NCBI GenBank assembly: GCA_018818145.1
Contig: JAHIST010000087.1
Span: forward strand, 1 to 38,775
DNA length: 38,775 nucleotides
Origin: Patescibacteria group bacterium
GTDB taxonomy: Bacteria > Patescibacteriota > Minisyncoccia > Portnoybacterales > GWB1-42-6
Direction: 5' to 3'
The notes below the pieces were generated by a model. That model saw only the letters and a list, made by a program, of their open reading frames with translations, was not told the origin of the DNA and ran no database searches. This document shows positions 11,755 to 26,874 of this stretch, piece after piece. The first letter of the stretch is position 1, and the number at the start of each line of letters is the position of its first letter. Position numbers and translations under genes: made by a program.

Positions 11755-12837
11755 ATGCGAGTGGCTTTGGTACACGATTATCTAAATCAATACGGAGGGG
11801 CGGAGCGCGTGCTTGAGGCATTTTGCGAAATTTGGCCGGAGGCGCCGATTTTTACTTTAATTTATGACGAGCGCCGCACCGGAGGAGCTTTCGCCGGCAG
11901 GAAGATCAAAACATCATTTTTGCAGAAAGTTCCTTTAGTGAAAAAACACCACCGGCCTTTTTTAATGCTGATGCCTCTGGCCATTGAGCAATTTGATTTG
12001 TCAAAATATGATCTGGTAATTTCTGATTCCGCTAGCTTTGCCAAAGGAGTGATAACAAGACCCAAAACACTGCATATCTGCTATTGCCACACCCCGACCC
12101 GCTATGTCTGGGACGACAGCCATAAATATATTGAAGAATTCAATTACCCGGCGCTGGTCAAAAAAATTATTCCGCCGTTTCTGAATTATTTGCGTCTTTG
12201 GGACGAGGCGGCTTCCTCCCGTCCTGATAAATATTTGGCCAATTCTCATTTTGTCGCCTCGCGCATTAGAAAATATTATCAGCAGGAGGCCACGGTTATC
12301 CACCCGCCGGTCAAAACCAGTTTTTTCTATATTGGCCAGCCCCAGGATTATTTTTTGGTTGTGGCCAGATTTTTGCCTTATAAAAAAATTGATTTGGCCA
12401 TCAGGGCATTTAACGAACTTGGCTGGCCCTTAAAAATTATCGGTGACGGGCCGGAAAAAAAGCGGCTTCAGAAAATTGCCGGTTCCAACATAGAATTTGT
12501 CGGGCTGGTTAATGAAGACTTGCTGAAAGATTACTACGCCCGCTGCTGTGCCTTTATATTCGCGCAGGAAGAGGATTTTGGTATCAGCGCGGTCGAGGCC
12601 ATGGGAGCCGGCCGGCCGGTGATTGCCTATCAGAGTGGCGGGGCGCTGGAAATTATAAAGGATGGGGAAACCGGGATTTTTTTTAAAGAGCAAACAGTTG
12701 ATTCTTTGGTCAGCGCGCTGAAAAAATTCCGCGATCAGGAATTTAATCCGGAAGTCATCCGTCAGCACGCTCTTCAATTTGATAAAGAAATTTTTAAAAA
12801 TAAAATAAAAGAATTCGTAAATCAATGCCAAAAATAA
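11755..12837 (+). CDS. Glycosyltransferase family 4
   Basis: EDFGISAVEAMGAGRPVIAYQSGGALEIIKDGETG is the E-x7-E GT4 motif region. Confidence 0.85.
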   Translation: MRVALVHDYLNQYGGAERVLEAFCEIWPEAPIFTLIYDERRTGGAFAGRKIKTSFLQKVPLVKKHHRPFLMLMPLAIEQFDLSKYDLVISDSASFAKGVITRPKTLHICYCHTPTRYVWDDSHKYIEEFNYPALVKKIIPPFLNYLRLWDEAASSRPDKYLANSHFVASRIRKYYQQEATVIHPPVKTSFFYIGQPQDYFLVVARFLPYKKIDLAIRAFNELGWPLKIIGDGPEKKRLQKIAGSNIEFVGLVNEDLLKDYYARCCAFIFAQEEDFGISAVEAMGAGRPVIAYQSGGALEIIKDGETGIFFKEQTVDSLVSALKKFRDQEFNPEVIRQHALQFDKEIFKNKIKEFVNQCQK

Positions 12838-13463
12838 ACGCGTCGCTTGGCGACAAAAAAATAGAATTTAATATTAAAGAATTTTTAGCAAAGCACAAAT
12901 TAATTTGGGTTTTTGCCCTGCTTGTGGCCGCGGCTGCCGGCATTTTCAGCTGGCGGGCAACGCAAAACTACACCGGCTCATTAGCCCTCACCATCAGTCG
13001 TTCCGGCACCCAAAACGCCATTGATTACAAATTTGACAGTTACTATGCGCTTAAGGCAACCGATGAATTTGGCAGCACGGTCGTCGGCTGGTTCAAAACT
13101 CCCGAAATTGCCAGCGTCATTAACGCGCGCCTGGGCATAGATTCCTCGGGCTGGTCGCTTAGCGCCTTAAGCGGTAAATTTAAGGCAGCCAAAATTTCTC
13201 CTAATTTGGTTGAGGTCAGATACGGGGCCACAAGCCAGGATGATGTCAAAAAAATTGCTTCAGCGGTCAGCCAGGTTATCGCGGAAAAAGTTAATTTGCT
13301 TAATTCTTCTTCCGGCCAGGGACTGGCTTTCGTTGTCATTGCCGGCGAGCCCGTGGCGGTTAAAAACACCTATAATTTATTGCTGGGCGTTTTGGCGGGA
13401 TTTTTGGTCGGGCTGGTTTTTGGGTTTTTTATTATGGTAGCGAGAGATTATTTTTATCGCTAA
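12825..13463 (+). CDS. Wzz-like polysaccharide co-polymerase (short form)
   Basis: It has N- and C-terminal TM helices. The opening is IEFNIKEFLAKHKLIWVFALLVAAAAG...YTGSLALTI and the C-terminal is LLLGVLAGFLVGLVFGFFIMVARDYF. It overlaps the upstream GT4 by 13 nt. Confidence 0.55.
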   Translation: MPKINASLGDKKIEFNIKEFLAKHKLIWVFALLVAAAAGIFSWRATQNYTGSLALTISRSGTQNAIDYKFDSYYALKATDEFGSTVVGWFKTPEIASVINARLGIDSSGWSLSALSGKFKAAKISPNLVEVRYGATSQDDVKKIASAVSQVIAEKVNLLNSSSGQGLAFVVIAGEPVAVKNTYNLLLGVLAGFLVGLVFGFFIMVARDYFYR

Positions 13464-13532
13464 TAATTATGAATTTGAGCGCAAGTCTCGCAAATTCATT
13501 CGTGAGATTTGTGGCTAAATTTGTGAGAATTT

Positions 13533-14675
13533 GTGATTGTAGGCGTTGATATCCGAGTTTTAGCTCGCGGCACGCGTACGGGGATAGAAGAATACACCCT
13601 TAATCTTCTGTCCCGTCTTTTGTCTTTGGGCAAAAACATAAAATTCAAGCTTTTTTATAATGCTTTTAATAAAAGTGAACTGGATTACGATTGGTTGAAT
13701 TTGCCCAACGTTGAGCTAAAAGAATTTTCATTTCCCAATCGCTTAATTTTCGACCCGTTGGCTAAATTTTTAAAGCTGCCAAAAATAGACAAGTTGTTGG
13801 GCGGTGCAGATGTATTTTTTGCCCCACATTTTTTATTGAGTCCGGTTTCTGATAGATGCCGAAAAATTATTACTTTTCACGATTTGTCATTTGAATATTT
13901 TCCGGAATTTTTCCCTTGGCGCAAGCGGCTGTGGCACGATTTTTTGAATCCGCGGGCCCGGGCGCGCCAGGCGGATAAAATTATTGCGGTATCTGGCTCA
14001 ACCAAGAATGACTTGACTGGTTGGTACAGCGTGCCGGGAAAAAACGTCAGAGTGATTTATTCTGGCGTAGGGGAAGAGTTTAAAAAATTGGAAATTGGAA
14101 ATTGGAAACTGGAAATTTCTGGCAAATATAATTTGCCAGGCAAGTTTATTTTATATTTCGGCACGATTGAGCCGCGCAAAAATATCAATGGCCTGGTCCG
14201 AGCTTATGAAATTTTAAGGCAGGACTACAAAATTAACGATTTTAAGTTAGTAATTGCGGGCAGTCGTGGGTGGCTGGACGAGCAAATATTCGCCAATGTC
14301 AAAAAATCAATCTACGGGGCGGATATAATTTTTACCGGTTTTGTCAGGCCACAGGATAAAATTTATTTGTATAATTTGAGTTCGCTTTTTGTTTATCCAA
14401 GTTTTTTTGAGGGTTTTGGTTTTCCGCCGCTGGAAGCGATGGCCTGCGGTGCGCCGGTTATTTGTTCCAACACCTCTTCATTTCCGGAAATAGCCGGCGA
14501 GGCGGCCTTAATGGTTGACCCTTATAATTTTGGCGAAATTGCCTGGGCGATGGCCGAAGTTTTAAAAGACTCGCGACTACAAGGGAATTTGGTCAATAAA
14601 GGGTTTGAACAAATTAAAAAATTTTCCTGGGACAAATGCGCGCGAGAAACACTGGATTTCATAACTAACAACTAA
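13533..14675 (+). CDS. Glycosyltransferase family 4 (GTG start)
   Basis: Motifs [19 protein letters not shown] and [32 protein letters not shown]. It contains an in-frame word repeat TTGGAAATTGGAAATTGGAAACTGGAAATTT at 14088-14119 ([12 protein letters not shown]). Confidence 0.85.
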
Positions 14676-14697
14676 AAACTACTAACTAAAAACTGAT

Positions 14698-15894
14698 ATG
14701 CGAATCGGTATTGACGCCCGCTTCTTTGGCCCGCGGGGCAAGGGGCTTGGGCGTTATACGCAAAAATTAATTGAATCGCTTCAAGAAATTGATAATCAGA
14801 ACGATTATGTGATTTTTTTGCGCCGCGAAAATTTTAATGAATTCCAGCCGCAAAACCCGCGCTTCAAAAAAGTTTTGGCTGACTACCGCTGGTACAGCGT
14901 GGCGGAACAGATTTTTTTACCATTTGTTATTTACAGGCAAAAAATAGATTTAATGCATTTTCCCCATTTTAATGTGCCGGTTTTATATTTTAAGCCGTTT
15001 GTTGTAACTATCCATGATTTGATTTTACGCCATTTTGCCACGCGCCGCGCCTCAACACTGGGATCGGTTAAGTATTGGTTTAAAAATCTGGCCTACCGGG
15101 CGGTTTTTCGGTTGGCTATCAGTCGGGCGAAAAAAATAATCACAGTTTCGCAATATGTCAGAAACGATATTATAAAATGTTTTAAAATAAAACCAGAAAA
15201 AATAGTGATGACTCACGAAGGAGTGCCGCAAAAAAATTCAAAATTCAAAAAGGCCACACCACCCCTTTTCCCTTCGGCAAAAGCCTACCAAAATTCAAAA
15301 GTAATTTTAGAAAAATACGGAATAAATAAACTATACCTGCTTTACGTGGGCAATGCTTATCCTCATAAAAATTTGGAGCGGCTATTGGGGGCTTTTAAAA
15401 TTTTAGTTGAAGATTTTAAAAAAGATATACAGCTTGTGCTGGCAGGCGAGGAGGATTATTTTTATCGCCGCTTGGAATCGTGTAATATTCTCATACTTCG
15501 GAGTATGGGAATATTACACGGAGAGCAATACGGTAGGGTAATTTTCACTGGTTTTGTGCCCGATGAAGAATTAGCTGGATTTTATAAAAACGCCAGCGCC
15601 TATGTTTTTCCCTCGCTTTGTGAAGGGTTTGGCTTACCATCGCTGGAAGCGATGAGTCAGGGCGTGCCGGTGGTTTCGTCCGGCGCCACCTGTCTGCCGG
15701 AAATTTTGGGCGAAGCGGCAGTTTATTTTGACCCTTTGAATCCGCGCGATATGGCGGAGAAAATAAATCAAGTTTTGGCAGATGAAAATCTGCGGCGCGG
15801 TTTGATAAGTAAAGGCTTTGAGCAAATAAAAAAATATTCTTGGCGGAAGATGGGGGAAGAAACATTAAATATATATTCAAATGTAAATATTTGA
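14698..15894 (+). CDS. Glycosyltransferase family 4
   Basis: Motifs MRIGIDARFF, YVGNAYPHKN and LCEGFGLPSLEAMSQGVPVVSSGATCLPEILG. It carries two atypical in-frame inserts (15234-15300 and 15480-15519). Confidence 0.85.
   Translation: MRIGIDARFFGPRGKGLGRYTQKLIESLQEIDNQNDYVIFLRRENFNEFQPQNPRFKKVLADYRWYSVAEQIFLPFVIYRQKIDLMHFPHFNVPVLYFKPFVVTIHDLILRHFATRRASTLGSVKYWFKNLAYRAVFRLAISRAKKIITVSQYVRNDIIKCFKIKPEKIVMTHEGVPQKNSKFKKATPPLFPSAKAYQNSKVILEKYGINKLYLLYVGNAYPHKNLERLLGAFKILVEDFKKDIQLVLAGEEDYFYRRLESCNILILRSMGILHGEQYGRVIFTGFVPDEELAGFYKNASAYVFPSLCEGFGLPSLEAMSQGVPVVSSGATCLPEILGEAAVYFDPLNPRDMAEKINQVLADENLRRGLISKGFEQIKKYSWRKMGEETLNIYSNVNI
15480..15519. repeat. Perfect 18-bp hairpin inside the GT4 coding sequence
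   Basis: GTGTAATATTCTCATACT tcgg AGTATGGGAATATTACAC forms 18 pairs including one G-U. It encodes SCNILILRSMGILH. Confidence 0.7.
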
Positions 15895-15966
15895 ATAGGA
15901 TGGGCGGAGCAATCCGTCTTTTTTCTGTGGATTAAAACAATTTCCAGTCGTGATATAATTTAATTA

Positions 15967-18681
15967 ATGGCTTATCGCAATGTTTTCAGCCAGATGTTTG
16001 ATGTACGTCCGTGTACGCAACTGGGCGGTTTAGATTTGGAACGGATAGAAAAAATCCAGCGCGTTTTAGATTTGGCACAAACAAAAGCGGGGCAGGAGCC
16101 GCAATTAAAAAGCGAGAAAGAATACGAAGCCAGGCGAGTTGTTGATTTGCGTGAAAAAATTGCCAAAAAGCTCCTGTTGGGAAATGCCGGAAAGCCGGTT
16201 CAGCCGCTTTCGCCCGACGAGCAAATTTTAAAATATCTGATTCCAGAAAAATCCATAGAGCCCCCTTCCTATAATCCCGAGATTTTGGAAAATTCTTATC
16301 CCACGCGCGAGGAAATTTTGGCGCAGTTGGAAGAAATTGAGCGGATTAATATTTATTTGCAAGAGCATAATTTTATTGATGAAGAAACAAAAGAACAGGT
16401 TGCGGAAGCAATAGACGAATCGCAAGACGAACTACTGAATATTTTGGCCCGGGTTAGCCCGGCGGATTTTGTAGAAGAACAGCAGATATCAAAAGTCATT
16501 GAAGAGGAGCCGGAAGAAATTGCTGTTTTCCGGCCAGTTCTGCCGTCTGAACCCTTGGCGGCCGAAGTTACGGTATCTGAAATTTCTGAATTGTTGCCAG
16601 CGGATCTGGCTGAACCCGGAAGCGCGCCCGAAAATAATATTTTTCAAGACGAGGCCGCGACGGAAATACCCGAACCATTAATTGCGCAAGAGCGAGATCA
16701 AAAACCGGAAGTCTGGGGATTTAGGCGCTCGGCCGTTGCCTTTATTAGCGCCGGCTGTTTGATATTTTTGGTAATTTTCGGTCTATCCTTAACCGGCCGG
16801 GGCTTGTCGGCAAAAGACAATATTTTAAGCTCCGGGCTTGAGGCTTACCGCGCAATGCTCGTTGGCAAGGAATCGGCCAGCCGGCTTGATTTTTCCGCGG
16901 CGCAGGCAAGCTTTTCTGCCGCTTATAGTAATTTTTTGCAGGCTGATCAGGAATTGGATAAAATGGGGCGCGCTCTTATTGTCGTGCTTGAACAGCTGCC
17001 CGGCGGCTCGCCGGTTGAATCTGGCTCTGCGTTAATTTCTGCCGGCAAAGATTTAGCTCAGGCGGCGCAGAGTTTTTCACGCATCGGCAGCTTAGTGGCA
17101 GTGCAAAAAATCGGAGACTATTTTTCTGGAAGCGGCGAATCTCTAACCCAAAAAGTCGCCCAAGCGCAAGGCGAACTTAAAATTGCGCAGGCTTATTTAG
17201 TTTCGGCTAACAATAATTTAAATAAAGTTAATGTTTCCGATTTGCCTTCTGATTTAGCACCTTCTGTTAGTTCGCTGAAAGAAAAATTGCCGGCAGTGGC
17301 AGCCGCAACCGCCGAGCTTGACCGCTGGAGCGGCGTTTTTTTGCAGGCCTTCGGGCATGAGCGCGTTCAAAAATACCTGCTTATCTTTCAAAATAACGCC
17401 GAAGCTCGAGCCACCGGTGGCTTTATCGGCACCTACGGCATTTTGGATTTGGACCAAGGACGGATAAAAAATCTTTTTATTGACGGCATTTTTAATTTAG
17501 ACGGCCAGCTTGACGAGAAGGTCGTGCCGCCTCGCCCAATCCAGAAAATTTCCACCGCCTGGTCAACGCACGACGCCAACTGGTTTCCCGATTGGCCGAC
17601 CTCAGCCAAAAAAATCATGGGTTTTTACGAAGCGGCCGGCGGCGGCGAAACCGTTGATGGCGTGATTTCTTTAACGCCTACGGTGGTGGAGCAGTTGCTG
17701 GCGCTGACCGGGCCGATAGATGTGCCGGAATTTAATTTGGCGCTGGACAAGGATAATTTTTCCGAGCTCATTCAGTATAAAGTGGAGTCTGACTATGATA
17801 AAGAGCTTAATCAGCCCAAAAAAATCTTGGCTGACTTTACGCCAAAATTTTTGGAGAAGCTCTGGGAAATCTGGCCGCAAAAATACGACGAAATTATTAC
17901 TATTGCCAGCAACGCTCTGGCCGAAAAACAAATCTTATTTTATTTTTCCGACCCGGCGCTGCAAGAAACTTTTGTGGAGCAGGGCTGGGCGGGCGAGGTG
18001 CTGCAAACCGACAAAGACTATTTGAGCGTGATTAATACCAACATCAATGGTTTCAAGACCGATAAAATGATTGAGCAGAAAATTTATCATAGCTCACAGG
18101 TTCAAAGCGACGGCTCAATTATTGATACGGTAAAAATTGTCAGAACGCACACGGGCGGCAAAAGCCTCTATGACTGGTATAACAAAGTCAACGCTAATTA
18201 TTTGCGAGTCTATGTGCCTCAAGGAAGCCAGCTTTTGTCGGCACAAGGCCACACGCGCGAGACCTACAGCGCGCCGGCTGATTATCAAAAATTGAATTTT
18301 AAAACCGATCCGGATGTAGCCGCCGAGGAGCAAGGAATGACGATTGATTCAAATTCGGGGACTCAAATTTTCACCGAATCTGGCAAAACCGTTTTTGGCA
18401 ACTGGGTTTATGTCAGCCCGAGCAAAACGGTTGAGGTAACTTATAGATATCTGCTGCCTTTTAAACTGAATTTGGGCGCTGACAGCTTCAGCTATAGTTT
18501 GCTGGCGCAAAAACAAGCGGGGAGTATAATGGATAGCGGTTTTGAAAGTATTTTAGAATTGCCGCAGGAATTCAAGATTGGCTGGCAGTATCCGGAAAAC
18601 TTGCAAATCTCCGGCTCACAAATTAAATTCAGCGGGAGCTTGAAGACGGATAAGTTTTATGGAGTGGTGTTTGCCAGGTAG
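15967..18681 (+). CDS. DUF4012 domain protein (904 aa, membrane-anchored, acidic N-terminal region)
   Basis: There is a TM segment (AVAFISAGCLIFLVIFGLSL). FQNNAEARATGGFIGTYGILDLDQGRI matches the remembered DUF4012 signature (QNNAE-x-R-x-x-GG). Confidence 0.7.
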   Translation: MAYRNVFSQMFDVRPCTQLGGLDLERIEKIQRVLDLAQTKAGQEPQLKSEKEYEARRVVDLREKIAKKLLLGNAGKPVQPLSPDEQILKYLIPEKSIEPPSYNPEILENSYPTREEILAQLEEIERINIYLQEHNFIDEETKEQVAEAIDESQDELLNILARVSPADFVEEQQISKVIEEEPEEIAVFRPVLPSEPLAAEVTVSEISELLPADLAEPGSAPENNIFQDEAATEIPEPLIAQERDQKPEVWGFRRSAVAFISAGCLIFLVIFGLSLTGRGLSAKDNILSSGLEAYRAMLVGKESASRLDFSAAQASFSAAYSNFLQADQELDKMGRALIVVLEQLPGGSPVESGSALISAGKDLAQAAQSFSRIGSLVAVQKIGDYFSGSGESLTQKVAQAQGELKIAQAYLVSANNNLNKVNVSDLPSDLAPSVSSLKEKLPAVAAATAELDRWSGVFLQAFGHERVQKYLLIFQNNAEARATGGFIGTYGILDLDQGRIKNLFIDGIFNLDGQLDEKVVPPRPIQKISTAWSTHDANWFPDWPTSAKKIMGFYEAAGGGETVDGVISLTPTVVEQLLALTGPIDVPEFNLALDKDNFSELIQYKVESDYDKELNQPKKILADFTPKFLEKLWEIWPQKYDEIITIASNALAEKQILFYFSDPALQETFVEQGWAGEVLQTDKDYLSVINTNINGFKTDKMIEQKIYHSSQVQSDGSIIDTVKIVRTHTGGKSLYDWYNKVNANYLRVYVPQGSQLLSAQGHTRETYSAPADYQKLNFKTDPDVAAEEQGMTIDSNSGTQIFTESGKTVFGNWVYVSPSKTVEVTYRYLLPFKLNLGADSFSYSLLAQKQAGSIMDSGFESILELPQEFKIGWQYPENLQISGSQIKFSGSLKTDKFYGVVFAR

Positions 18682-18715
18682 GGATGCCGTTTAGCGGGGT
18701 TACTACCTGGTTTGT

Positions 18716-20356
18716 ATGTTAATGTGGAAATTTTTTAATAATAAAATTCTCAACGGTCTCAACGGCCAGTCGCAGACCATAACCTCGGCTGCGATAATTT
18801 TGGCGGTGGCTTCGCTGGCCAGCCGGTTTTTGGGTTTGATTCGCGACCGGCTGCTGGCCGGCCAGTTTGGCGCGGGCGACACATTAGATATTTACTACGC
18901 CGCTTTTCGCATTCCCGATTTGGTTTATAATCTTCTGATTTTAGGCGCGCTATCGGCTGGTTTTATTCCGGTTTTTGTCAGCCTGTGGCAAAAGGGCGAG
19001 CGCGATGAAAAAGCTTGGCAATTTGTGAACAGCATTTTGAATATTTTGCTGGTGGGACTCATCATTTTGGGCGGACTTTTTTTTATTTTCGCGCCCTACT
19101 TGATGAAGCTAATCACGCCCGGATTTAGCGGAGAAAAATTTAATTTGACCGTGCAGCTGACCCGGATTATGTTTTTGAGCCCTTTGCTTTTAGGGATCAG
19201 CGGGATTTGGGGAGGGGTTTTACAAAGTTTAAAAAGATTTTTCGTTTTTTCACTCGCCCCGATTTTTTATAATTTAGGCATAATTTTTGGCATTTTGTTT
19301 TTGGTGCCGCGTTTTGGGATTTACGGATTGGCTTATGGCGTAGTTTTGGGCGCATTTTTGCATATGGTGATTCAACTGCCAACGCTTTTAAGCTTAGGTT
19401 TCCGTTGGCGGCCGGTTTTCAACTGGGCCGACGAAGGAATGCGGCGGCTGACAAAACTTATGGTGCCCCGCACTTTAACCCTGGCTGTTTCGCAGTTGAA
19501 TTTCGTGGCTATCACTATTTTGGCTTCAGGCCTGGCGGCCGGCAGTTTGGCGGTTTTTAATTTGTCTTTTAATATCTGGAGTTTTCCCTTGGGGATTTTA
19601 GCTGCCTCTCTGGCCATCGCCGCTTTTCCAATATTGTCGCAAAACGCGGCAACGAAAGACCGGCAGGCTTTTGCCAAAACTTTTTCGGTAACTTTTCGGC
19701 AAATTTTATTTTTAATTATTCCGGCCAGCGCTCTATTTATTGTGTTGCGCGCCCAAATCGTGCGCGTTGTTTTGGGAACGGGTAAGTTTGACTGGACAGA
19801 TACTATTTTAACTTTTCAGTCTTTGCAATATTTGACTTTGGGGCTTTTTGCCGAAGCGTTGATTTTGCTTTTAATTCGCGGATTTTTTGCGCTGGAGGAC
19901 ACCAAAACGCCTTTCTGGTTGGGTTTATTTAGTTCGGCGGTGCGGATTTTTGGCGCCTGGATTTTTGCGGCCTATCTGGGTGTGCCCGGCCTGGCCCTGG
20001 GTTATGCGCTCGGCGGCGTGGCCTATCTGATTTTGCTTTGGATATTTTTGGAAAGAAAAGTGGGGGATTTGAATTTTAGGGAAATTTTAAACAGCGGGCT
20101 CAAAATATTTTTAGCTTCTTTTTTGGCCGGCATGGCTGCTTATTTAATGTTGCAAGTAATGGATAAATTTGTGAACACTCATAAGGTTTTGGGCATTTTT
20201 GCGCAAGGACTGGCAGCCGGCATAGTTGGAATAATTGTTTATTTTTTAGCCGGTCTGATTTTGCGCTCGCAGGAGATGTGGGCATTTTACCGTTCGCTCA
20301 AAAATCGCCTGCCTTTCAAAACCGTCGCGCCGGATAAGGAATTAATTCAGGAATAA
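18716..20356 (+). CDS. murJ: Lipid II flippase MurJ/MviN family
   Basis: SRFLGLIRDRLLAGQFGAGDTLDIYYAAFRIPDLVYNLLILGALSAGFIPVF is the canonical MurJ N-terminus. The protein is polytopic throughout. Confidence 0.85.
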   Translation: MLMWKFFNNKILNGLNGQSQTITSAAIILAVASLASRFLGLIRDRLLAGQFGAGDTLDIYYAAFRIPDLVYNLLILGALSAGFIPVFVSLWQKGERDEKAWQFVNSILNILLVGLIILGGLFFIFAPYLMKLITPGFSGEKFNLTVQLTRIMFLSPLLLGISGIWGGVLQSLKRFFVFSLAPIFYNLGIIFGILFLVPRFGIYGLAYGVVLGAFLHMVIQLPTLLSLGFRWRPVFNWADEGMRRLTKLMVPRTLTLAVSQLNFVAITILASGLAAGSLAVFNLSFNIWSFPLGILAASLAIAAFPILSQNAATKDRQAFAKTFSVTFRQILFLIIPASALFIVLRAQIVRVVLGTGKFDWTDTILTFQSLQYLTLGLFAEALILLLIRGFFALEDTKTPFWLGLFSSAVRIFGAWIFAAYLGVPGLALGYALGGVAYLILLWIFLERKVGDLNFREILNSGLKIFLASFLAGMAAYLMLQVMDKFVNTHKVLGIFAQGLAAGIVGIIVYFLAGLILRSQEMWAFYRSLKNRLPFKTVAPDKELIQE

Positions 20357-20430: not shown

Positions 20431-23400
20431 ATGCCAAATCAAGATTTAAATAAATTTATAAAAGAAGCTTTAGCTTCCGGTAAAACGCTGGAAAATATCA
20501 AGACTGAGCTAACGGGCACGGGATGGGATGAAAAGGAAATTAGCGCCGCGACAAAAGAATTTATAAATCCAGCGGGCGATTTTTTTCATAAGAATAAAAA
20601 ATTACTTATATTTTTTGGGATAATCGCTGTACTTATCGCTGCGGGAATTTTAGGATGGTATCTTTATCCCAATTTTCAAAAACCAGCGCAGGCAAAATTT
20701 AGTCTTGAAGCGGTCAATGGCGACCAGGTTGGAATTGAACCCCAAACAACTTTTTTACTGAAAAGTTCGGAAAATATTTCTGAATCCGACGTGAAAAAAA
20801 TCGTGAAATTTGATCCGGAGATAGCCTTTAGCGTTAAAAAAATAAAATCGGTCCTAGGAGCTATTACCGAAACGATTCAGGCTAAAGCAGTCTATGAAAT
20901 AAAACCGCAGGATTCTTTGGCGCAAAGGCAGGTTTACCAGGTAAAAATTAATGACTCCGATTTTGCCGAGCACGAATACGGCTGGGCGTTTCAAACAAAG
21001 GCGGTTTTTCAGGTAACCCAAACGCATCCCAGAGACAAAGCGACAAGCGTTCCTTTAAATTCCGGCATTGAGATTATTTTTAACCGGGATAATCCGATCG
21101 GTCCAGAAAATAATTTTGAAATAAGTCCCAAAGTTGACGGTACCTTTGAAATAAACAGAAACAATACTTTAGTTTTCCTGCCAAAAAATTTGACTGCGGG
21201 AACGGTTTACACTATAACCATCAAGAAAGGATTAAGGGCTCAAAACACAGACGATACTTTGGTTGAAGATTTTTCTTTTGCTTTTGAGACCGGCTCTGGA
21301 AATTATGGAGAATATTCGTATTTCAGCTTTTCTGAAAATTTAATTGATTCTCTCCCGGAAATTAAACCGAGTCTTCAGATTTATTCCTATAATATTAATT
21401 TGGAAAATTTAAAGGCTAATGTTTATAGGTTCCCCGGGGCTGACGCATTCTTAAAATCTTATGTGGATAGCAGAAATTGGAATTGGTATTGGACAAATTA
21501 TTATTGGAAGGCTGGCAAAAACGATATCCCAAGTAACACTCAAAAAGTCGTATCTTTTAGGCCGGAAATTTCCACGGTTCAATATAATAATTTTTTTGAA
21601 ATTCCGCAGGTACTTGATGCGGGTTTTTACTTGGTAGATGTTGAATATTCCGGGGGACGACATGAACAGGCCTGGCTTCAGATAAATCCGCTTTCTCGTT
21701 ATTTTTCTGTAAGTCCAGATAAGAGTTTTGTCTGGATTCAGGATTTTAATAAAAAAGAGCCGCAAAAGGATGTAAAAATTAGCTATGTCGGCGGGGGCGA
21801 AGAAAAAAATTTAGGCGTGACCAATCAGGACGGATTGCTGGAATTTGCGACTCCCGATTCGCTAAAAAATCAGGACATAAAAGATTTTAAACCTAAATTC
21901 TTCAAAGCTCAAAAAAGCGGATTACCCGAGTTTCTAATCGCCATCACCGACCGCTGGGGGTATCGCTCAAGTGTTTCCCAGGGGAATCTTTACTGGAATT
22001 ATATTTCTACCGATCGCGCGGTATATCAGATATCGGATTCAATCAAATATTGGGGCGTAGCTAAGGGCCGCCAGTCTGACATAAAAGAAAAGATGGTGAA
22101 TGTCGGGCTTTACTCTTATGGATATTATTTTTATGGCTACGATTCTTCGCAAGATATCCCGGTTGTTTCGCAGGACGTTTTAGTTTCTCAATTTGATACG
22201 GTTGAAGGCGAGCTGAATTTTAAAGGGCTTTCCCCCGGCTATTATGTTTTGCAGGTTAAAAACGGCAAAAACATAATTTCATCCGTTTCGGTTGAGATTA
22301 TGACTTATACCAAGCCGGCTTATGAAATCAAAATTACCCCTTCTAAAGAGGCTGCGTATGCCGGCGAAAACATTATTTTCCGCGTTGCGGCCAATTTTTT
22401 TGACGGAACGCCAGTATCTAAGCTGCGTTTGAAATACTCCGGTTACTGGGATTCGTCTTTTAGCGGAGAATTAATATTAAATGGAAACGGCGAAGGGGAA
22501 GTGACTTATACGCCGCAATATATAGAAACAGACAGTTTTTATTATCCCAGAAGCCTTGAATTGACATTTCAGCCGGTTTTATCAGAGGAGGGAGAAATTT
22601 GGGGCAGCGCCAGCGTTTTGGTCTTTGGTCCGAATATTTATTTGCAGGCATTCCAAGAAAATCAGTCCGGAGACAATTATAAAATTACTGCCAAGACAAA
22701 CAGAATTGACATAATCAAGGGTTCAATTTCAGAAAATAATTATCAGCCGGAATATATCGGTGAGCCGGCTTCTAATTTTACGCTTTCGGCAGAGTTAATT
22801 AAAACGGTTTATGTCAGCCGGGAAACGGGTCAGTATTACGATCCGATTAATAAGGTTGTCAGAAAAATTTATGATTACAGCTCCTATGACCAAAGTATTG
22901 AGCAGTTTTCGGGGCAGACGAACAGCTCCGGCGAGTGGATTTTTACCAAAACCGTGCCGCAGGAACAAAATGCCAGCTATAGAATGATTTTTTCCGGGCA
23001 TGATAATCAGGGCAGAAGAGTCAAGCAAACTGTCTATTTTTACCGGCCATATTATAACGAATCTTCCGACTTCTCAATTTCCCTGAAGGGTAACAAGGCA
23101 GATAACGAGGAATATTCCATCGGTGAGAAGATAAATCTTGAGACAAAAATAGAGCGGGGCGACAAACCCGCTAATCCAAAGATTTTATATTACAGATTTA
23201 AAAACAGCATTGAAGAGGTTTTTGTTTCGGGCAATTATCAGATTCAGGAGGAATTTGGGACGGATTTTGTGCCTTCGGAACAATATATGGCGGTAATGCT
23301 TGGTCCCAGTGGTTTTGTGGAGACTAATTCTGTTATGATTCCTTTCAAAAAAAGCGACCGGAAGCTGAATATCCAAATCAACCCCGACAAAGAAAGCTAT

Positions 23401-25908
23401 CGGCCGGGCGATCAAATAAAAATTTCTTTAACAATAAAGGATAAAGACGGCAAACCGGTTTCGGCTCAAGTTAATGTCGCGGCAGTGGATGAAGCACTTT
23501 TTCATATTCTGTCTTATAACTGGCGCCAGGATATTCTAATCGGACTTTATCAGCGTATTTATAATATGCCTCTTTCTAATGGTTCTCAATACAATTTACT
23601 CAAAACTGAGGGTGCTGAAAGTGGCGGCTGTTTCGCCGCTGGCACGCAAGTTTTAATGGCGGACAAAAGCTCTAAGCCGATTGAAGAAATAAAAATCGGA
23701 GATAAAATTACCACCTTTACCAGCGAAAAAGATCATAATTTAAAGTCGGCAATCGTTCAGGGAATTTCTGTTCACAAGGTGGAGGGCTATCTGATTATTA
23801 ACGGTCGTCTCAAAGTCACGCCGGAACATAAAATATTTTTGAATGGCGCATGGAATTATGCCGGTGTGGCCAAGGCGGGCGACGAGCTAATTACGAGCAA
23901 AGGACAAAAAGAAAAAATTAATTTCCTTGTGTTTGAAAAAAAACAGACTTTTGTTTATAACATAGTGGTTGATTCGCACCATACCTATTTCGCTGACGGC
24001 CTTTATGTTCATAATGCCGAAAAAGGAGGCGCCAGGACGAATTTTGTTGATTTAGCTTTATTTCAAACGCTAAAAGCTGACGGCGGCCAGGCCCAGATAA
24101 GCTTTAAGGCTCCGGACAATATCACAAGCTGGCGTACAACTGTGCTGGCTTACGATTCGGACGGAATGAAGGCCGGTCAGTCGGAAAAATTAATTAAAGT
24201 TTCTTTGCCATATTTCGTGGATGCTGTCCTTGGCAGTTACTATCTTGAAGGCGATAATCCTTACTTGCGGCTGCGCTCTTTTGGCACCGATTATAATTTT
24301 TCAGAACCGGTTGATTATTCAATAACCTGTGAAGCTTTGTCTTTTAACCAAAGTCAGATAAGCAAGGACAATAGTGTTTATATTCCGCTTGGCAAACTGA
24401 AAGAGGGTGAATATGATTTTACGATTTCGGGAAAACAAAATAAGCTTCAGGACTCGCTGGTAAGAAGTATCAAAGTTCTGAAAACATTTTTTCAACAACC
24501 ACAAACTGCTGTTTATCCGCTTTCAGAAGACCTTTCTAATTTAGAAGGCAACAGCGACGGATTTACAAAGTTAGTTTTTATGGATCAGGGCAAGGGGAAA
24601 TTTTATAAATCTTTGCGCGAGAATTCTTATGGGGACGGAATCAGATCCGACCAGTCAACAGCGGCTTTTTTCTCTCAAAAAATATTAGCCGATTATTTTG
24701 ACCAAAAACCACCAGAGAACAATTTAGATTTGAGCGGCTATCAGGTGCCAGATGGCGGATTGGCTTTGTTTCCTTACGGCGATAGCGACCTTGAGCTTTC
24801 GGCAAAGCTTGCTGATTTGGCGCCTGACTATGTTTTTCAGGATCAGCTGGCAAAATATTTTTATGCTTCTTTGAACGACAAAAAAACCGATATTCACCGT
24901 ATCGCCAAAGCGCTTTACGGCTTAGCGGGATTAAGAGAGCCGGTTCTGAATAAAATTTATAGCGTCAAAGACAGCAGCGACTTGAATTTTGAAGATAAAA
25001 TTTATGTCGCTTTGGCTCTAGCCAGATTGGGAGATAAAGAAAATGCGCGCCAGATTTATGAAGCCCAAATTAGGCCGCAGGTGCGTTTTCAGGGGTCGGA
25101 AGCTTGGCTGGCGGAGGAAACTGACCAGACAAAGCAAGTTAAGCTTACTTCAGCTATTGCTGTTTTGGCCGCGCATCTAGATTCGGGCGACACTGATCCC
25201 CTGTGGAATTATATCTCCAAACACTACCCAATAAGGGATCTAAACATAATTGAACAAATTATTGTAGCTCAAAATGAGCTGCCAAAATTCCAAAAACAAC
25301 AAGCCGAGTTTTCGTACGAAGCCGGAAACAAAAAGGGACAGGTGAAACTTCAGAATGGAAAAACTTTTACACTCAATCTTTCCAAAGAAGAGCTTAATTC
25401 AATCAAATTTTCCGGAATAGAAGGGGACATCAGCGCAGCCAGTTTTTATGAAAAATACACTAATTCAGACGAGCTGACAAAAAATCGGGAACTGAGCTTA
25501 GACCGGCAGTACTTGGTTAACAGCGTTACGACCAATTCATTCCCAGAGGGCAGTATTGTGCTGGTCAGATTAACGCCGAAATTTGCAGCAACGGCTATGG
25601 ACGGTCCTTATCAGATAATTGATTATCTGCCGGTGGGCTTACGGCCGATTACCCAACTTTATAAAGCGGGATTAGGATACGGTTGGGATTTGTGCGATAC
25701 GACTTGGTATCCGACGAAGATTGTCAATAACGCCGTTTACTTTAATATTTCAAAAGATTTCAACGGTAAATGTTCCCAGCGGACCTTAAATTATTACGCC
25801 CGCGTCGTTTCCAAGGGGGATTTTCAGGCAAACCCGGCGATAATTCAATCATTAAAAGACTTGGAAAGCTTAAATGTTTCGGCCAAAGATGATGTAAGCA
25901 TAAAATAG
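20431..25908 (+). CDS. Alpha-2-macroglobulin-like giant surface protein (1825 aa), thioester-less, with an embedded Hint domain
   Basis: An N-terminal TM anchor follows a ~55-aa cytoplasmic head. Repeated beta-rich (MG-like) segments are present. VNVAAVDEALFHIL is the A2M_N_2-type motif. RTNFVDLALFQ...APDNITSWRTTVLAYDSDG is the A2M-domain motif (compare human RKYFPETWIW...PDTITEWKA). There is no CxEQ anywhere: the protein has only 4 Cys, none in a CxEQ context. Confidence 0.8.
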   Translation: MPNQDLNKFIKEALASGKTLENIKTELTGTGWDEKEISAATKEFINPAGDFFHKNKKLLIFFGIIAVLIAAGILGWYLYPNFQKPAQAKFSLEAVNGDQVGIEPQTTFLLKSSENISESDVKKIVKFDPEIAFSVKKIKSVLGAITETIQAKAVYEIKPQDSLAQRQVYQVKINDSDFAEHEYGWAFQTKAVFQVTQTHPRDKATSVPLNSGIEIIFNRDNPIGPENNFEISPKVDGTFEINRNNTLVFLPKNLTAGTVYTITIKKGLRAQNTDDTLVEDFSFAFETGSGNYGEYSYFSFSENLIDSLPEIKPSLQIYSYNINLENLKANVYRFPGADAFLKSYVDSRNWNWYWTNYYWKAGKNDIPSNTQKVVSFRPEISTVQYNNFFEIPQVLDAGFYLVDVEYSGGRHEQAWLQINPLSRYFSVSPDKSFVWIQDFNKKEPQKDVKISYVGGGEEKNLGVTNQDGLLEFATPDSLKNQDIKDFKPKFFKAQKSGLPEFLIAITDRWGYRSSVSQGNLYWNYISTDRAVYQISDSIKYWGVAKGRQSDIKEKMVNVGLYSYGYYFYGYDSSQDIPVVSQDVLVSQFDTVEGELNFKGLSPGYYVLQVKNGKNIISSVSVEIMTYTKPAYEIKITPSKEAAYAGENIIFRVAANFFDGTPVSKLRLKYSGYWDSSFSGELILNGNGEGEVTYTPQYIETDSFYYPRSLELTFQPVLSEEGEIWGSASVLVFGPNIYLQAFQENQSGDNYKITAKTNRIDIIKGSISENNYQPEYIGEPASNFTLSAELIKTVYVSRETGQYYDPINKVVRKIYDYSSYDQSIEQFSGQTNSSGEWIFTKTVPQEQNASYRMIFSGHDNQGRRVKQTVYFYRPYYNESSDFSISLKGNKADNEEYSIGEKINLETKIERGDKPANPKILYYRFKNSIEEVFVSGNYQIQEEFGTDFVPSEQYMAVMLGPSGFVETNSVMIPFKKSDRKLNIQINPDKESYRPGDQIKISLTIKDKDGKPVSAQVNVAAVDEALFHILSYNWRQDILIGLYQRIYNMPLSNGSQYNLLKTEGAESGGCFAAGTQVLMADKSSKPIEEIKIGDKITTFTSEKDHNLKSAIVQGISVHKVEGYLIINGRLKVTPEHKIFLNGAWNYAGVAKAGDELITSKGQKEKINFLVFEKKQTFVYNIVVDSHHTYFADGLYVHNAEKGGARTNFVDLALFQTLKADGGQAQISFKAPDNITSWRTTVLAYDSDGMKAGQSEKLIKVSLPYFVDAVLGSYYLEGDNPYLRLRSFGTDYNFSEPVDYSITCEALSFNQSQISKDNSVYIPLGKLKEGEYDFTISGKQNKLQDSLVRSIKVLKTFFQQPQTAVYPLSEDLSNLEGNSDGFTKLVFMDQGKGKFYKSLRENSYGDGIRSDQSTAAFFSQKILADYFDQKPPENNLDLSGYQVPDGGLALFPYGDSDLELSAKLADLAPDYVFQDQLAKYFYASLNDKKTDIHRIAKALYGLAGLREPVLNKIYSVKDSSDLNFEDKIYVALALARLGDKENARQIYEAQIRPQVRFQGSEAWLAEETDQTKQVKLTSAIAVLAAHLDSGDTDPLWNYISKHYPIRDLNIIEQIIVAQNELPKFQKQQAEFSYEAGNKKGQVKLQNGKTFTLNLSKEELNSIKFSGIEGDISAASFYEKYTNSDELTKNRELSLDRQYLVNSVTTNSFPEGSIVLVRLTPKFAATAMDGPYQIIDYLPVGLRPITQLYKAGLGYGWDLCDTTWYPTKIVNNAVYFNISKDFNGKCSQRTLNYYARVVSKGDFQANPAIIQSLKDLESLNVSAKDDVSIK
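23629..24015 (+). other. Hint / bacterial-intein-like domain (residues 1067-1195 of the A2M-like protein)
   Basis: Block A is CFAAGTQVLMADKS, block B is VTPEHKIF (T-x-x-H), and blocks F/G are VYNIVVDSHHTYFADGLYVHN. It is 129 aa with no endonuclease insert. The residue after HN is Ala. Confidence 0.8.
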
Positions 25909-25929: not shown

Positions 25930-26874
25930 TTGATAATTGTCAGAGGAAAAATAAAATGGAAAATTGCTGCGATTTTAATTATTGTTATTGCGGCAATTTC
26001 GTTTATCTTGGTTTTTTTGCGGCTGAATGGCAATTTTAAAATTGGCAAGAAAAATTCAAATTTGCCGGTCAGGCGAGATTCAGAAAATTTTGTTTCTTCG
26101 CAAGATTACATTGTTTTTGATTATGGAAATGCCAAAGATTATGTTGAAAAATATTTTAGAGATAATCCGGCCGGCAAGGTTAATGATTTTCAAATCGGTA
26201 TAACTTCTCATCATTTGCCGTCTGCCGCTTATTTTATAGGAGATTTTTATCAGAACCTCGGAAAGGCAAATGACAAGATTTTTGTGGTGGTCGGGCCGGA
26301 CCATTTTGAAAGTTGCGGCGGTATGCTCTTAACTACACAAAAATCCTTTCTGACTCCTTTTGGAATTTTGGAAAGCGATTCGGAAATTGTTAAAAAGATT
26401 ATTGAGAGCGGAGCAATTTTTAATGACACATGTTTCAGTAGAGAGCATTCTATCGCTGTCCAAGCCCTTTTTATAAAATTTCTTTTTCCCGACGCAAAAA
26501 TTGTTGCTTTGCTTCTTTCGGCGAATATTGACACAAATACACTTCAAAATTTAACAAATAGTCTGAAAGCATTTGGGAAAAAAATAGTCCTGATTGGCAG
26601 CGTTGACTTTTCGCATTATCGCCCCTATGAGATTGCCGCCAGCCTGGATGCAGAAAGCGAAAAAATGATTTTAAATTATGATGTTTCTGCGATTGATCTT
26701 GGCCACGTTGATTCTCCTCCGACAATAAAATTATTAGTTTCTTTGGCAAGAGAATGGAAACTGAAGCCGCGGATTTTAGGCAGGGCAAACTCTTTTAATT
26801 TTACCGGAAAAACTGAAGACACGACGGGCTATATTAATGCGATTTTTTATGCTCCGGTTGGGAGCCGAGATTGA
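25930..26874 (+). CDS. Memo-like / AmmeMemoRadiSam system protein B family, membrane-anchored
   Basis: Motifs ITSHHLPSA, VVVGPDHF, SREHSIAVQALFIKFLFP and GSVDFSHY. There is an N-terminal TM segment (KIAAILIIVIAAISFILVFL). It has a TTG start; no in-frame ATG is nearby. Confidence 0.65.
   Translation: MIIVRGKIKWKIAAILIIVIAAISFILVFLRLNGNFKIGKKNSNLPVRRDSENFVSSQDYIVFDYGNAKDYVEKYFRDNPAGKVNDFQIGITSHHLPSAAYFIGDFYQNLGKANDKIFVVVGPDHFESCGGMLLTTQKSFLTPFGILESDSEIVKKIIESGAIFNDTCFSREHSIAVQALFIKFLFPDAKIVALLLSANIDTNTLQNLTNSLKAFGKKIVLIGSVDFSHYRPYEIAASLDAESEKMILNYDVSAIDLGHVDSPPTIKLLVSLAREWKLKPRILGRANSFNFTGKTEDTTGYINAIFYAPVGSRD

Follow-up and report, generated by a model that had tools for sequence, protein, structure and literature searches.

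A putative self-excising intein-like domain in the bait loop of a thioester-less alpha-2-macroglobulin homolog from Patescibacteria

The host protein and the Hint domain in its bait loop

The window analyzed here, the whole 38,775-nucleotide stretch of contig JAHIST010000087.1 from a Patescibacteria genome, carries at 20431..25908 on its plus strand (also the strand of all features of this gene described below) a gene encoding an 1825-residue homolog of the alpha-2-macroglobulin (A2M)/thioester-protein superfamily, identified from the translation of the open reading frame, Pfam matches, and fold matches. At aa 1067-1195 of this protein (23629..24015) lies a 129-residue Hint domain of the type-A bacterial intein-like (BIL) kind, assigned from Pfam, profile and fold matches and from conservation. 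A sequence-only reading of the same DNA had proposed a complete Hint domain without an endonuclease at the bait position of an A2M-like protein; the coordinates, conserved blocks and Pfam matches obtained here agree with the former part, and the bait-region placement is borne out by the Pfam A2M_BRD and A2M matches, by alignment with the E. coli A2M (ECAM, or YfhM; sequence taken from NC_000913.3), and by a structural model.

The features of the Hint superfamily, namely an N-terminal nucleophile (block A), the TxxH of block B, and the Hint fold, are all present. Cys1067 is encoded by tgt at 23629-23631, the block B residues T1130-P-E-H1133 lie at 23818-23829, and His1194-Asn1195 (cat aat, 24010-24015) close the domain, leaving the non-nucleophilic Ala1196 (gcc) at position +1. 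The motifs CFAAGTQV, VTPEHKIF, and VVDSHHTYFADGLYVHN are all found in it, and a homing endonuclease is absent. Pfam PT-HINT (PF07591) matched aa 1081-1195 with 37.8 bits (cut-off 27.7) and Vint matched aa 1066-1149 with 32 bits (cut-off 27); in the rest of the host, the A2M model scored 30.9 bits over aa 1215-1275 against a cut-off of 21. The RTNF...PDNITSWR segment is the start of the A2M domain, as had been supposed, and on the strength of these sequence matches a chance assignment of the Hint and A2M domains is excluded.

Both in sequence and in fold the domain is closest to characterized BILs, not to inteins. A profile made from the alignment of 25 orthologous Hints had as its best PDB match the Clostridium thermocellum BIL 2LWY (E=1.6e-15), followed by the Tetrahymena BIL2 structures 6TMM/6Y75 (about 1e-14), with 8W20 also matched, whereas RecA mini-inteins were matched more weakly (E=1.6e-9). 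An AlphaFold2 model of the Hint alone, with a predicted local distance difference test (pLDDT) score of 97.5, superposed on BIL2 (6TMM/6Y75) and 2LWY with TM 0.89-0.90, root-mean-square deviation (rmsd) 1.8-2.3 A and 27-30% identity, compared with TM ~0.80 on mini-inteins and ~0.75 on Hedgehog 1AT0. The sequence characteristics of type-A BILs, as summarized in PMC4031507, were all observed: a C-terminal HN, no Cys, Ser, or Thr at +1, no endonuclease, and a surface-protein host with the insertion in one of its variable loops. The suggestion, made from the Ala after HN, that the domain follows the BIL rather than the canonical intein pattern is supported by the 2LWY and BIL2 matches and by the census of +1 residues given below.

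The superfamily architecture of the host comprises an MG body, a bait-region domain, TED-like helices, and a C-terminal MG domain. Its single N-terminal transmembrane helix (aa 58-76, LLIFFGIIAVLIAAGILGW; 20602..20658; mean Kyte-Doolittle 2.67) is the sole hydrophobic stretch of the protein, which has four cysteines in all. Ahead of the helix stand a 45-residue N-terminal tail and then HKNKK, from which, by the positive-inside rule, we infer that the helix is a type-II membrane anchor and that the Hint and the rest of the A2M body are outside the cell. The tail itself, MPNQDLNKFIKEALASGKTLENIKTELTGTGWDEKEISAATKEF (aa 1-45; window positions 20431-20565), is a small module that would be cytoplasmic in this topology; tails of the same type also start orthologs P0002, P0017, and P0259, again before the transmembrane helix. 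The bait-region domain (A2M_BRD, PF07703; aa 889-1025, 23095..23505; Pfam E=4e-10) has as its final strand VDEALFHIL, which aligned to ECAM AVDSGVLNI (aa 898-906). After the Hint come the post-bait MG domain (Pfam "A2M", PF00207, covering aa 1215-1275), which starts with RTNFVDLALFQ...PDNITSWR at 24034..24255, a TED-like domain (aa ~1388-1619, 24592..25287) that is helical over model residues 748-979, and, at the C-terminus, an MG domain of bMG10/CTMG-like type (aa 1691-1807, 25501..25851), which has a weak PF17973 match, is beta-rich in the model and aligns with the ECAM C-terminus. Big_5 and, more weakly, MG2, bMG3, and bMG10 (aa 1691-1807) were further Pfam matches. An AlphaFold2 model of aa 641-1825, built from 52 homologs (mean pLDDT 86), had native ECAM 5A42 (E=1e-39) and Salmonella A2M 4U48 as top Foldseek matches, followed by protease-activated ECAM, human A2ML1, A2M, C5, C3, CD109, and TEP1; E values ranged from 1e-39 to 1e-30 across ECAM, Salmonella A2M, C3, C5, CD109, and TEP1, with a host-ECAM sequence identity of ~13%.

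Around the Hint, this model has long stretches of low confidence only in the two flanks, aa 1050-1066 and 1196-1199. The former is the disordered N-side bait linker (NMPLSNGSQYNLLKTEGAESGG, 23578..23628; pLDDT <50, model residues 410-426), which ends in AExGG; the latter belongs to the C-side flank AEKGGA (aa 1196-1201, 24016..24033; pLDDT <50 at model residues 556-559), in which Lys1198, one of the Lys residues conserved at +2/+3, has its codon at 24022-24024. This flank makes the gap between the Hint and RTNF six residues, not five as first counted. The structure prediction that had been called for to place the insert thus puts the Hint between disordered bait-loop flanks, and by the model and the ECAM alignment a disordered loop is present where a protease-sensitive bait would lie. 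The multiple alignment places the insertion between G949/D950 and K955 of ECAM, 7-12 residues C-terminal of R923-L942 and directly ahead of R956, and AEKGGA is aligned to K955-R956-G-G-K. The bait segment R923-L942 is missing from elastase-cleaved ECAM, in which R956 comes into contact with the C-terminal MG domain (PMC4498604).

The motif RxxFxDxAx(F/W)...PDNxTSW is common to all homologs, with or without the Hint. In the Hint-less ones, 84-123 residues separate VDEA from PDNxTSW, the loops vary in length and composition, and P0037 and P0048 have other insertions at the Hint loop position. Since Hint-less homologs vary or carry other insertions there, the Hint site can be equated with the bait-loop position, and by sequence comparison it behaves as a hypervariable bait loop. 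Long Ala/Ser/Met-rich stretches were also noticed at this position in P0040, P0042, P0044, P0046, and P0047.

Distribution, conservation and inheritance

A whole-protein search returned 55 homologs, 25 of which have the Hint at the same alignment column with the junction consensus ...GAE(G/K/M)GG|CF...VHN|(A/Q/E/D/N/G)(E)KGG.... A scan of one genome per GTDB species, with a pattern that contained VHN, gave 93 confirmed Hint copies; 80 loci were kept, and 77 of these are in A2M context. Finally, a profile search of 1.84 billion proteins, in which HN was not required, yielded 32 A2M-context representatives. The same Hint occupies the same site in at least 77 species-level Patescibacteria genomes, its A2M hosts being found in Portnoy-, Pace-, Uhr-, Specht-, Moran-, Magasanik-, Falkow-, Doudna-, Shapiro-, Levy-, Woese-, Collier-, Ames- and Dojkabacteria, in WWE3, and in Peregrini-, Gracili- and Saccharibacteria. 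The arrangement is not peculiar to the window but widespread, and apparently ancient, in Patescibacteria.

Several side observations accompany these searches. At loci L032, L040, and L077 the Hint is within short non-A2M proteins. Many GTDB records carry a gene of the Candidate Phyla Radiation (CPR) type under titles of uncultured Gammaproteobacteria or Pseudomonadales (L012, L015, L026-L028, L031, and others) or of archaea (L018, Nanoarchaeia; L064, Methanoperedens; L032; L077); these metagenome-assembled genomes are probably mislabeled or mis-binned. The top matches of the Hint profile, P0056-P0130, have 2-12 tandem Hints without A2M context, for example P0057 (1285 residues, 12 matched stretches), P0078 (4119 residues), and P0148, and the tandem copies are sometimes only 1-3 residues apart (VHN|SGG|CF, VHN|K|CF).

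The domain and its junctions are highly conserved. Among the 77 GTDB loci, Hint length is 128-131 residues in 75, position -1 is Gly in 74 and position -2 in 71, and Lys stands at +2 or +3 in 75, while the x of AExGG in the N-flank is variable (G39, K21, M7, others). Position +1 is occupied mainly by E27, Q19, D19, and A9, with a single Ser (L046); overall, Ser at +1 was found in 0/25, 1/77, and 1/32 sequences of the whole-protein, GTDB and profile sets, and Cys or Thr in none. C1, F2, T6, H67, H128, and N129 are invariant and T64 is conserved in the 25 whole-protein orthologs, and C1 together with HN is present in all 32 profile-found representatives. The ratio of nonsynonymous to synonymous substitution rates (dN/dS) of the Hint, limited to five unsaturated pairs (the remaining pairs have a proportion of synonymous differences, pS, >0.75), is 0.06-0.21, similar to that of the host.

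The divergence of the Hint closely follows that of its host: pairwise identities are correlated with Mantel r=0.89, a value that none of 5000 permutations reached, with mean identities of 47% for the Hint and 37% for the host, and GC content is alike in the Hint and its flanks. From these sequence comparisons, the Hint is old, vertically transmitted and under purifying selection; recent horizontal acquisition was ruled out by the uniform GC content and the Hint-host congruence. The Hints of CxEQ-type hosts are mutually nearest neighbors in 16 of 17 cases, and hence the domain has been inherited within each paralog class. In a rough neighbor-joining (NJ) host tree, computed with the Hint removed from the sequences, Hint-bearing and Hint-less lineages interleave, which, given the congruence, suggests several losses of the Hint. 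The Hint-less P0229, P0259, P0261, and P0263, with 37-44% identity to the window protein, are nested among Hint-bearers; P0259 has a CPR-type N-terminal tail.

The search for insert-free relatives recommended by the sequence-only reading was thus successful, and at the Hint site they have a short AExGG-GDGD loop: close Hint-less relatives read GGGAEKGG-GDGD-xxR, and the x of AExGG in these loops is M, G, K, Q, R, or S. The flanks GAESGG and AEKGGA, described as near-duplicates, are present as stated, but they also match the AExGG-GDGD/EGGD loop motif of Hint-less relatives. A target-site duplication left by a DNA-level insertion is disfavored, since Hint-less loops already carry AExGG and G/E/D-GG-D, and the repeat is more simply explained as the ancestral loop motif AExGG + (E/D)GG(D), as far as the sequences can tell.

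The relation of the Hint to the thioester site can be examined in the same set of proteins. No C.EQ was found over the whole 1825-residue host, and YGDGIRSDQS (Y1400-S1409, 24628-24657) aligns with ECAM YPYGCLEQTA, with Ile or Arg at the thioester Cys position, in agreement with the earlier description of this site. The CxEQ motif is also absent from the known YfaS/MagD class, and its absence is no bar to superfamily membership. However, canonical YPYGCxEQ(T) lies 222-229 residues downstream of the Hint in 16 of the 77 GTDB proteins (L019, L026, L028, L044, L045, L047, L049, L051, L059, L064, L065, L072, L076, L078, L080, and L081) and in P0053, and proteins with both CxEQ and the Hint retain the C-terminal LMY/EMY motif. 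Neither Hint nor CxEQ is present in many relatives, namely a clostridial-type clade (P0026-P0052) and, besides it, P0018, P0229, and P0259-P0263. Because CxEQ and Hint co-occur and relatives without both are common, thioester loss and Hint presence are independent on this sequence evidence. The proposal that the Hint thioester stands in for both bait and CxEQ was rejected, as the two show no complementary distribution and the bait-like linker aa 1050-1066 is retained. As side observations, a second Patescibacteria A2M class of 1660-2300 residues, including P0053 and P0295-P0303, combines CxEQ with a BIL at the same bait position, and a third (L027, L031, L061) has neither CxEQ nor GxRxDQ.

Proposed self-excision and competing explanations

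Judged from these conservation patterns and the sequence matches, the Hint is neither a substitute for CxEQ nor a canonical mobile intein. By analogy with characterized BILs, it is probably, though by no means certainly, an active type-A BIL, long resident in the bait loop of a thioester-less A2M and removing itself by splicing or double cleavage. Activity is likely in view of the invariant C1, block B Thr and His, and HN and of the low dN/dS, and because both junctions are conserved, complete excision would be favored over a single cut. Type-A BILs splice via thioester formation, Asn cyclization, and aminolysis, and their cleavage products dominate (PMC4031507); the known members, as cited there, include C. 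thermocellum BIL4 (2LWY; Aranko et al. 2013) and the domains reported in Amitai et al. 2003 and in Dassa et al. 2004.

The corresponding steps can be predicted for the window protein. After export and folding, an N-S acyl shift at Gly1066-Cys1067 would form a thioester, as expected from homology with type-A BILs, and cyclization of Asn1195 would sever the Hint from Ala1196. An amine of the freed C-flank, the Ala1196 alpha-amine or else the Lys1198 epsilon-amine, would then attack the thioester; should ligation fail, the thioester would be hydrolyzed, and the Hint would leave the bait loop in either case. The remaining A2M would either be nicked into two chains or have a religated Gly-rich loop similar to the AExGG-GDGD loop seen in Hint-less relatives. 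Lys1198 may be the acceptor, since the C-flank Lys is nearly fixed and BIL2 uses a Lys epsilon-amine: BIL2, which zinc activates, makes an isopeptide with this amine and can join its N-flank to Lys residues of other proteins (PMC8616854). Alternatively, Lys1198 might be the counterpart of ECAM K955/R956, in the segment that rebinds after bait cleavage.

Several considerations weigh against self-excision as stated here. The computations fit splicing, double cleavage, or a Hint retained until triggered alike. Excision would take place outside the cell, where Cys1 could be oxidized. The nested Hint-less relatives mean that the Hint is dispensable in some lineages, and its conservation may reflect no more than the harm that a failure to excise would do to the host protein. 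In addition, the host tree behind the inferred losses is rough, and for the 80 GTDB loci part of the HN conservation is circular, the sets of 25 and 32 sequences being unbiased in this respect.

A more active role for the Hint, as a protease-independent A2M trigger (self-baiting) or as a ligase onto the +2/+3 Lys that would produce an isopeptide-branched loop, is unlikely. Taken alone, the version in which the role of the Hint is cleavage, by analogy with the furin and convertase cuts beside the ANA domain of C3/C4/C5, is doubtful: autocatalytic cutting at the N- and/or C-terminus of the Hint would nick the loop, untether AEKGGAR and bring about an A2M switch or a two-chain form without any protease, and the cleavage could depend on thiols, metal ions, or pH. 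The dominance of cleavage products among type-A BILs and the zinc activation of BIL2, in the two papers cited above, are in line with it, as are the alignment of the C-flank with ECAM K955/R956, a bait part that binds the C-terminal MG domain after untethering, the retention of the Hint across the CPR in a loop where deletion should be easy, and the presence of the Hint also in CxEQ paralogs, in which bait cleavage activates the thioester. However, constitutive self-cleavage would use up the trap beforehand, Hint-less relatives appear functional with a plain loop, and an ECAM-like switch must be presumed in the thioester-less class; the conservation of both junctions, for its part, fits splicing equally well.

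Capture of an external amine is very unlikely. The Cys1067 thioester would here replace bait and CxEQ and be attacked from outside, bonding the N-terminal membrane-anchored part of the protein to a target such as a Lys on a protease or on the host-cell surface, or a cell-wall amine. The thioester of the Hedgehog Hint is resolved by an external nucleophile, cholesterol, and Hedgehog has at its junction G|CF, similar to the GG|CF of the window protein. The lack of CxEQ in the window protein and the conjugation by BIL2 of its N-flank to Lys of other proteins also agree with capture, yet an intact CxEQ beside the Hint in 16/77 loci and in P0053, the frequent relatives without either, the retained linker, and an invariant C-terminal HN that N-side capture would not need all stand against it. 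Still less probable is a silent structural insert, that is, a Hint that stays in the bait loop as a folded module, for example for binding or recognition, with its residues conserved for folding. The A2M/complement fold does tolerate a folded domain here (the ANA domain of C3/C4/C5), and the Hint is slightly better conserved than its host, but the invariant C1, TxxH, and HN with the conserved -1 Gly are a signature of chemistry, and the closest solved relatives are active BILs. Finally, a selfish mini-intein with canonical four-step splicing and horizontal spread is scarcely credible. The Hint does have the intein fold and the intein blocks A, B, F, and G, RecA mini-inteins are its next-best matches, and the one ortholog L046 has Ser at +1. 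This reading is contradicted by the +1 census (non-C/S/T in 24/24, 76/77, and 31/32, with Ala in the window protein), by the lack of a homing endonuclease, by an insertion site that is disordered and variable, in a secreted protein that evolves fast, rather than a conserved active site or a highly conserved site of an essential protein, and by Hint-host congruence with no compositional anomaly.

Related systems, neighboring genes and significance

The closest known systems share parts of this arrangement. Type-A BILs such as 2LWY (the joint-best fold match, with TM 0.90, rmsd 1.8 A, and 30% identity) are likewise of ~130 residues, with Cys1, TxxH, a C-terminal HN, and no +1 nucleophile, in a variable region of a surface protein; the A2M bait loop, at one fixed position, is a new host and site for them, and in contrast the Hint family of the window is vertically inherited across a superphylum and has a conserved +2/+3 Lys. 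To our knowledge, the BILs described so far are in hypervariable, non-conserved hosts, and none is tied to a functionally defined loop or site. BIL2, from the BUBL1 locus of Tetrahymena thermophila, is the top Foldseek match (27% identity) and also splices without a +1 nucleophile, but it is a eukaryotic conjugation device with ubiquitin-like flanks, whereas the Hint of the window is flanked by Gly-rich A2M linkers. Hedgehog/Hog proteins have a junction similar to GG|CF; the window Hint has no sterol-recognition region and ends in HN. The best Pfam model for these Hints is PT-HINT of polymorphic toxins (37.8-44.3 bits), yet unlike in pretoxins, the Hint is followed by A2M MG, TED-like, and CTMG domains rather than by a toxin, and the next gene is Memo-like, where pretoxins usually have an immunity gene.

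Among A2Ms, ECAM/YfhM, Salmonella A2M, and YfaS/MagD have the same overall fold, disordered bait loop, and membrane anchoring, and the YfaS/MagD class is, like the window protein, without CxEQ. The window protein differs from them in the autoprocessing-type domain in its bait loop, an N-terminal Big_5 region, a type-II transmembrane helix instead of a lipobox, and a Memo-like partner instead of pbpC or the mag operon. The ANA domain of complement C3/C4/C5 lies at the same topological place, before RSEFPESWLW...DSITTW (cf. RTNFVDLALFQ...PDNITSW), and cuts by furin and convertases on its two sides control complement maturation and activation. ANA is not a Hint and is cut by external proteases, whereas by this analogy the cuts around the window Hint would be autocatalytic.

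A search of the literature, including that on Patescibacteria/CPR, found no paper describing a BIL, Hint, or intein in A2M or thioester proteins, in line with the statement of the sequence-only reading that no A2M of this architecture was known to it. The parts are auto-detected in databases, and no interpretation of the architecture was found there. A paper on the CPR bacterium Vampirococcus considers A2M-domain membrane proteins as a possible defense against host proteases and leaves the Hint unmentioned (PMC8080830).

Directly downstream of the host gene is a gene (25930..26874) for a membrane-anchored Memo-like protein of 314 residues (PF01875, E=1.4e-21) with an N-terminal hydrophobic helix. 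Of 67 related Patescibacteria loci (within L002-L080), 37 have a Memo-like gene immediately after the A2M-like gene and in the same orientation, and one is also present at L083:10116-11147. As a Memo-like gene adjoins the Hint-less homolog P0031 too, the partner is independent of the Hint. A2M and Memo appear to form a conserved two-gene unit older than the Hint, and by analogy the pair may parallel E. coli yfhM-pbpC. Upstream, at 11755-20356 of the window, are three glycosyltransferases of family GT4, a 904-residue DUF4012 protein, and MurJ, which form a cell-envelope cluster. Among the upstream neighbors at 80 related loci, DUF4012 was found in one (L037) and MurJ and the one GT4 tested in none; a conserved upstream neighborhood was rejected, and only the downstream Memo-like gene recurs.

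The members of the A2M family, from ECAM to complement C3, are spring-loaded proteins, and an external protease sets them off by cutting a single loop. In the proteins described above, a domain of a cutting and ligating type is placed exactly in this trigger loop, under purifying selection, in several paralog types and in at least 77 species-level genomes from most Patescibacteria classes. The novelty, a type-A BIL whose setting is new, stable across the phylogeny and functionally loaded, is less radical than the thioester replacement first proposed. If the domain only splices, its lineage is the largest and oldest among the vertically inherited BILs that our searches turned up. If cleavage or ligation to Lys1198 does occur, an A2M/thioester protein would mature or fire independently of proteases, the CxEQ paralogs would be self-activating thioester proteins that could bond covalently to the surfaces of the episymbionts' host cells, and an isopeptide-branched bait loop would be a splice product undescribed for any bacterial protein. 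Such a cleaving or ligating activity would be relevant to defense or attachment by ultra-small episymbiotic bacteria. The orthologs also form a natural series of extracellular, nucleophile-independent BILs of ~129 residues with Gly-rich flanks, which may serve as protein-ligation tools.

The results also correct the naming of orthologs in databases. The automatic NCBI name "polymorphic toxin-type HINT domain-containing protein," given to P0222 and P0239, is misleading in that these proteins have no toxin domain, and JGI names some of the orthologs "YfaS (alpha-2-macroglobulin family)."

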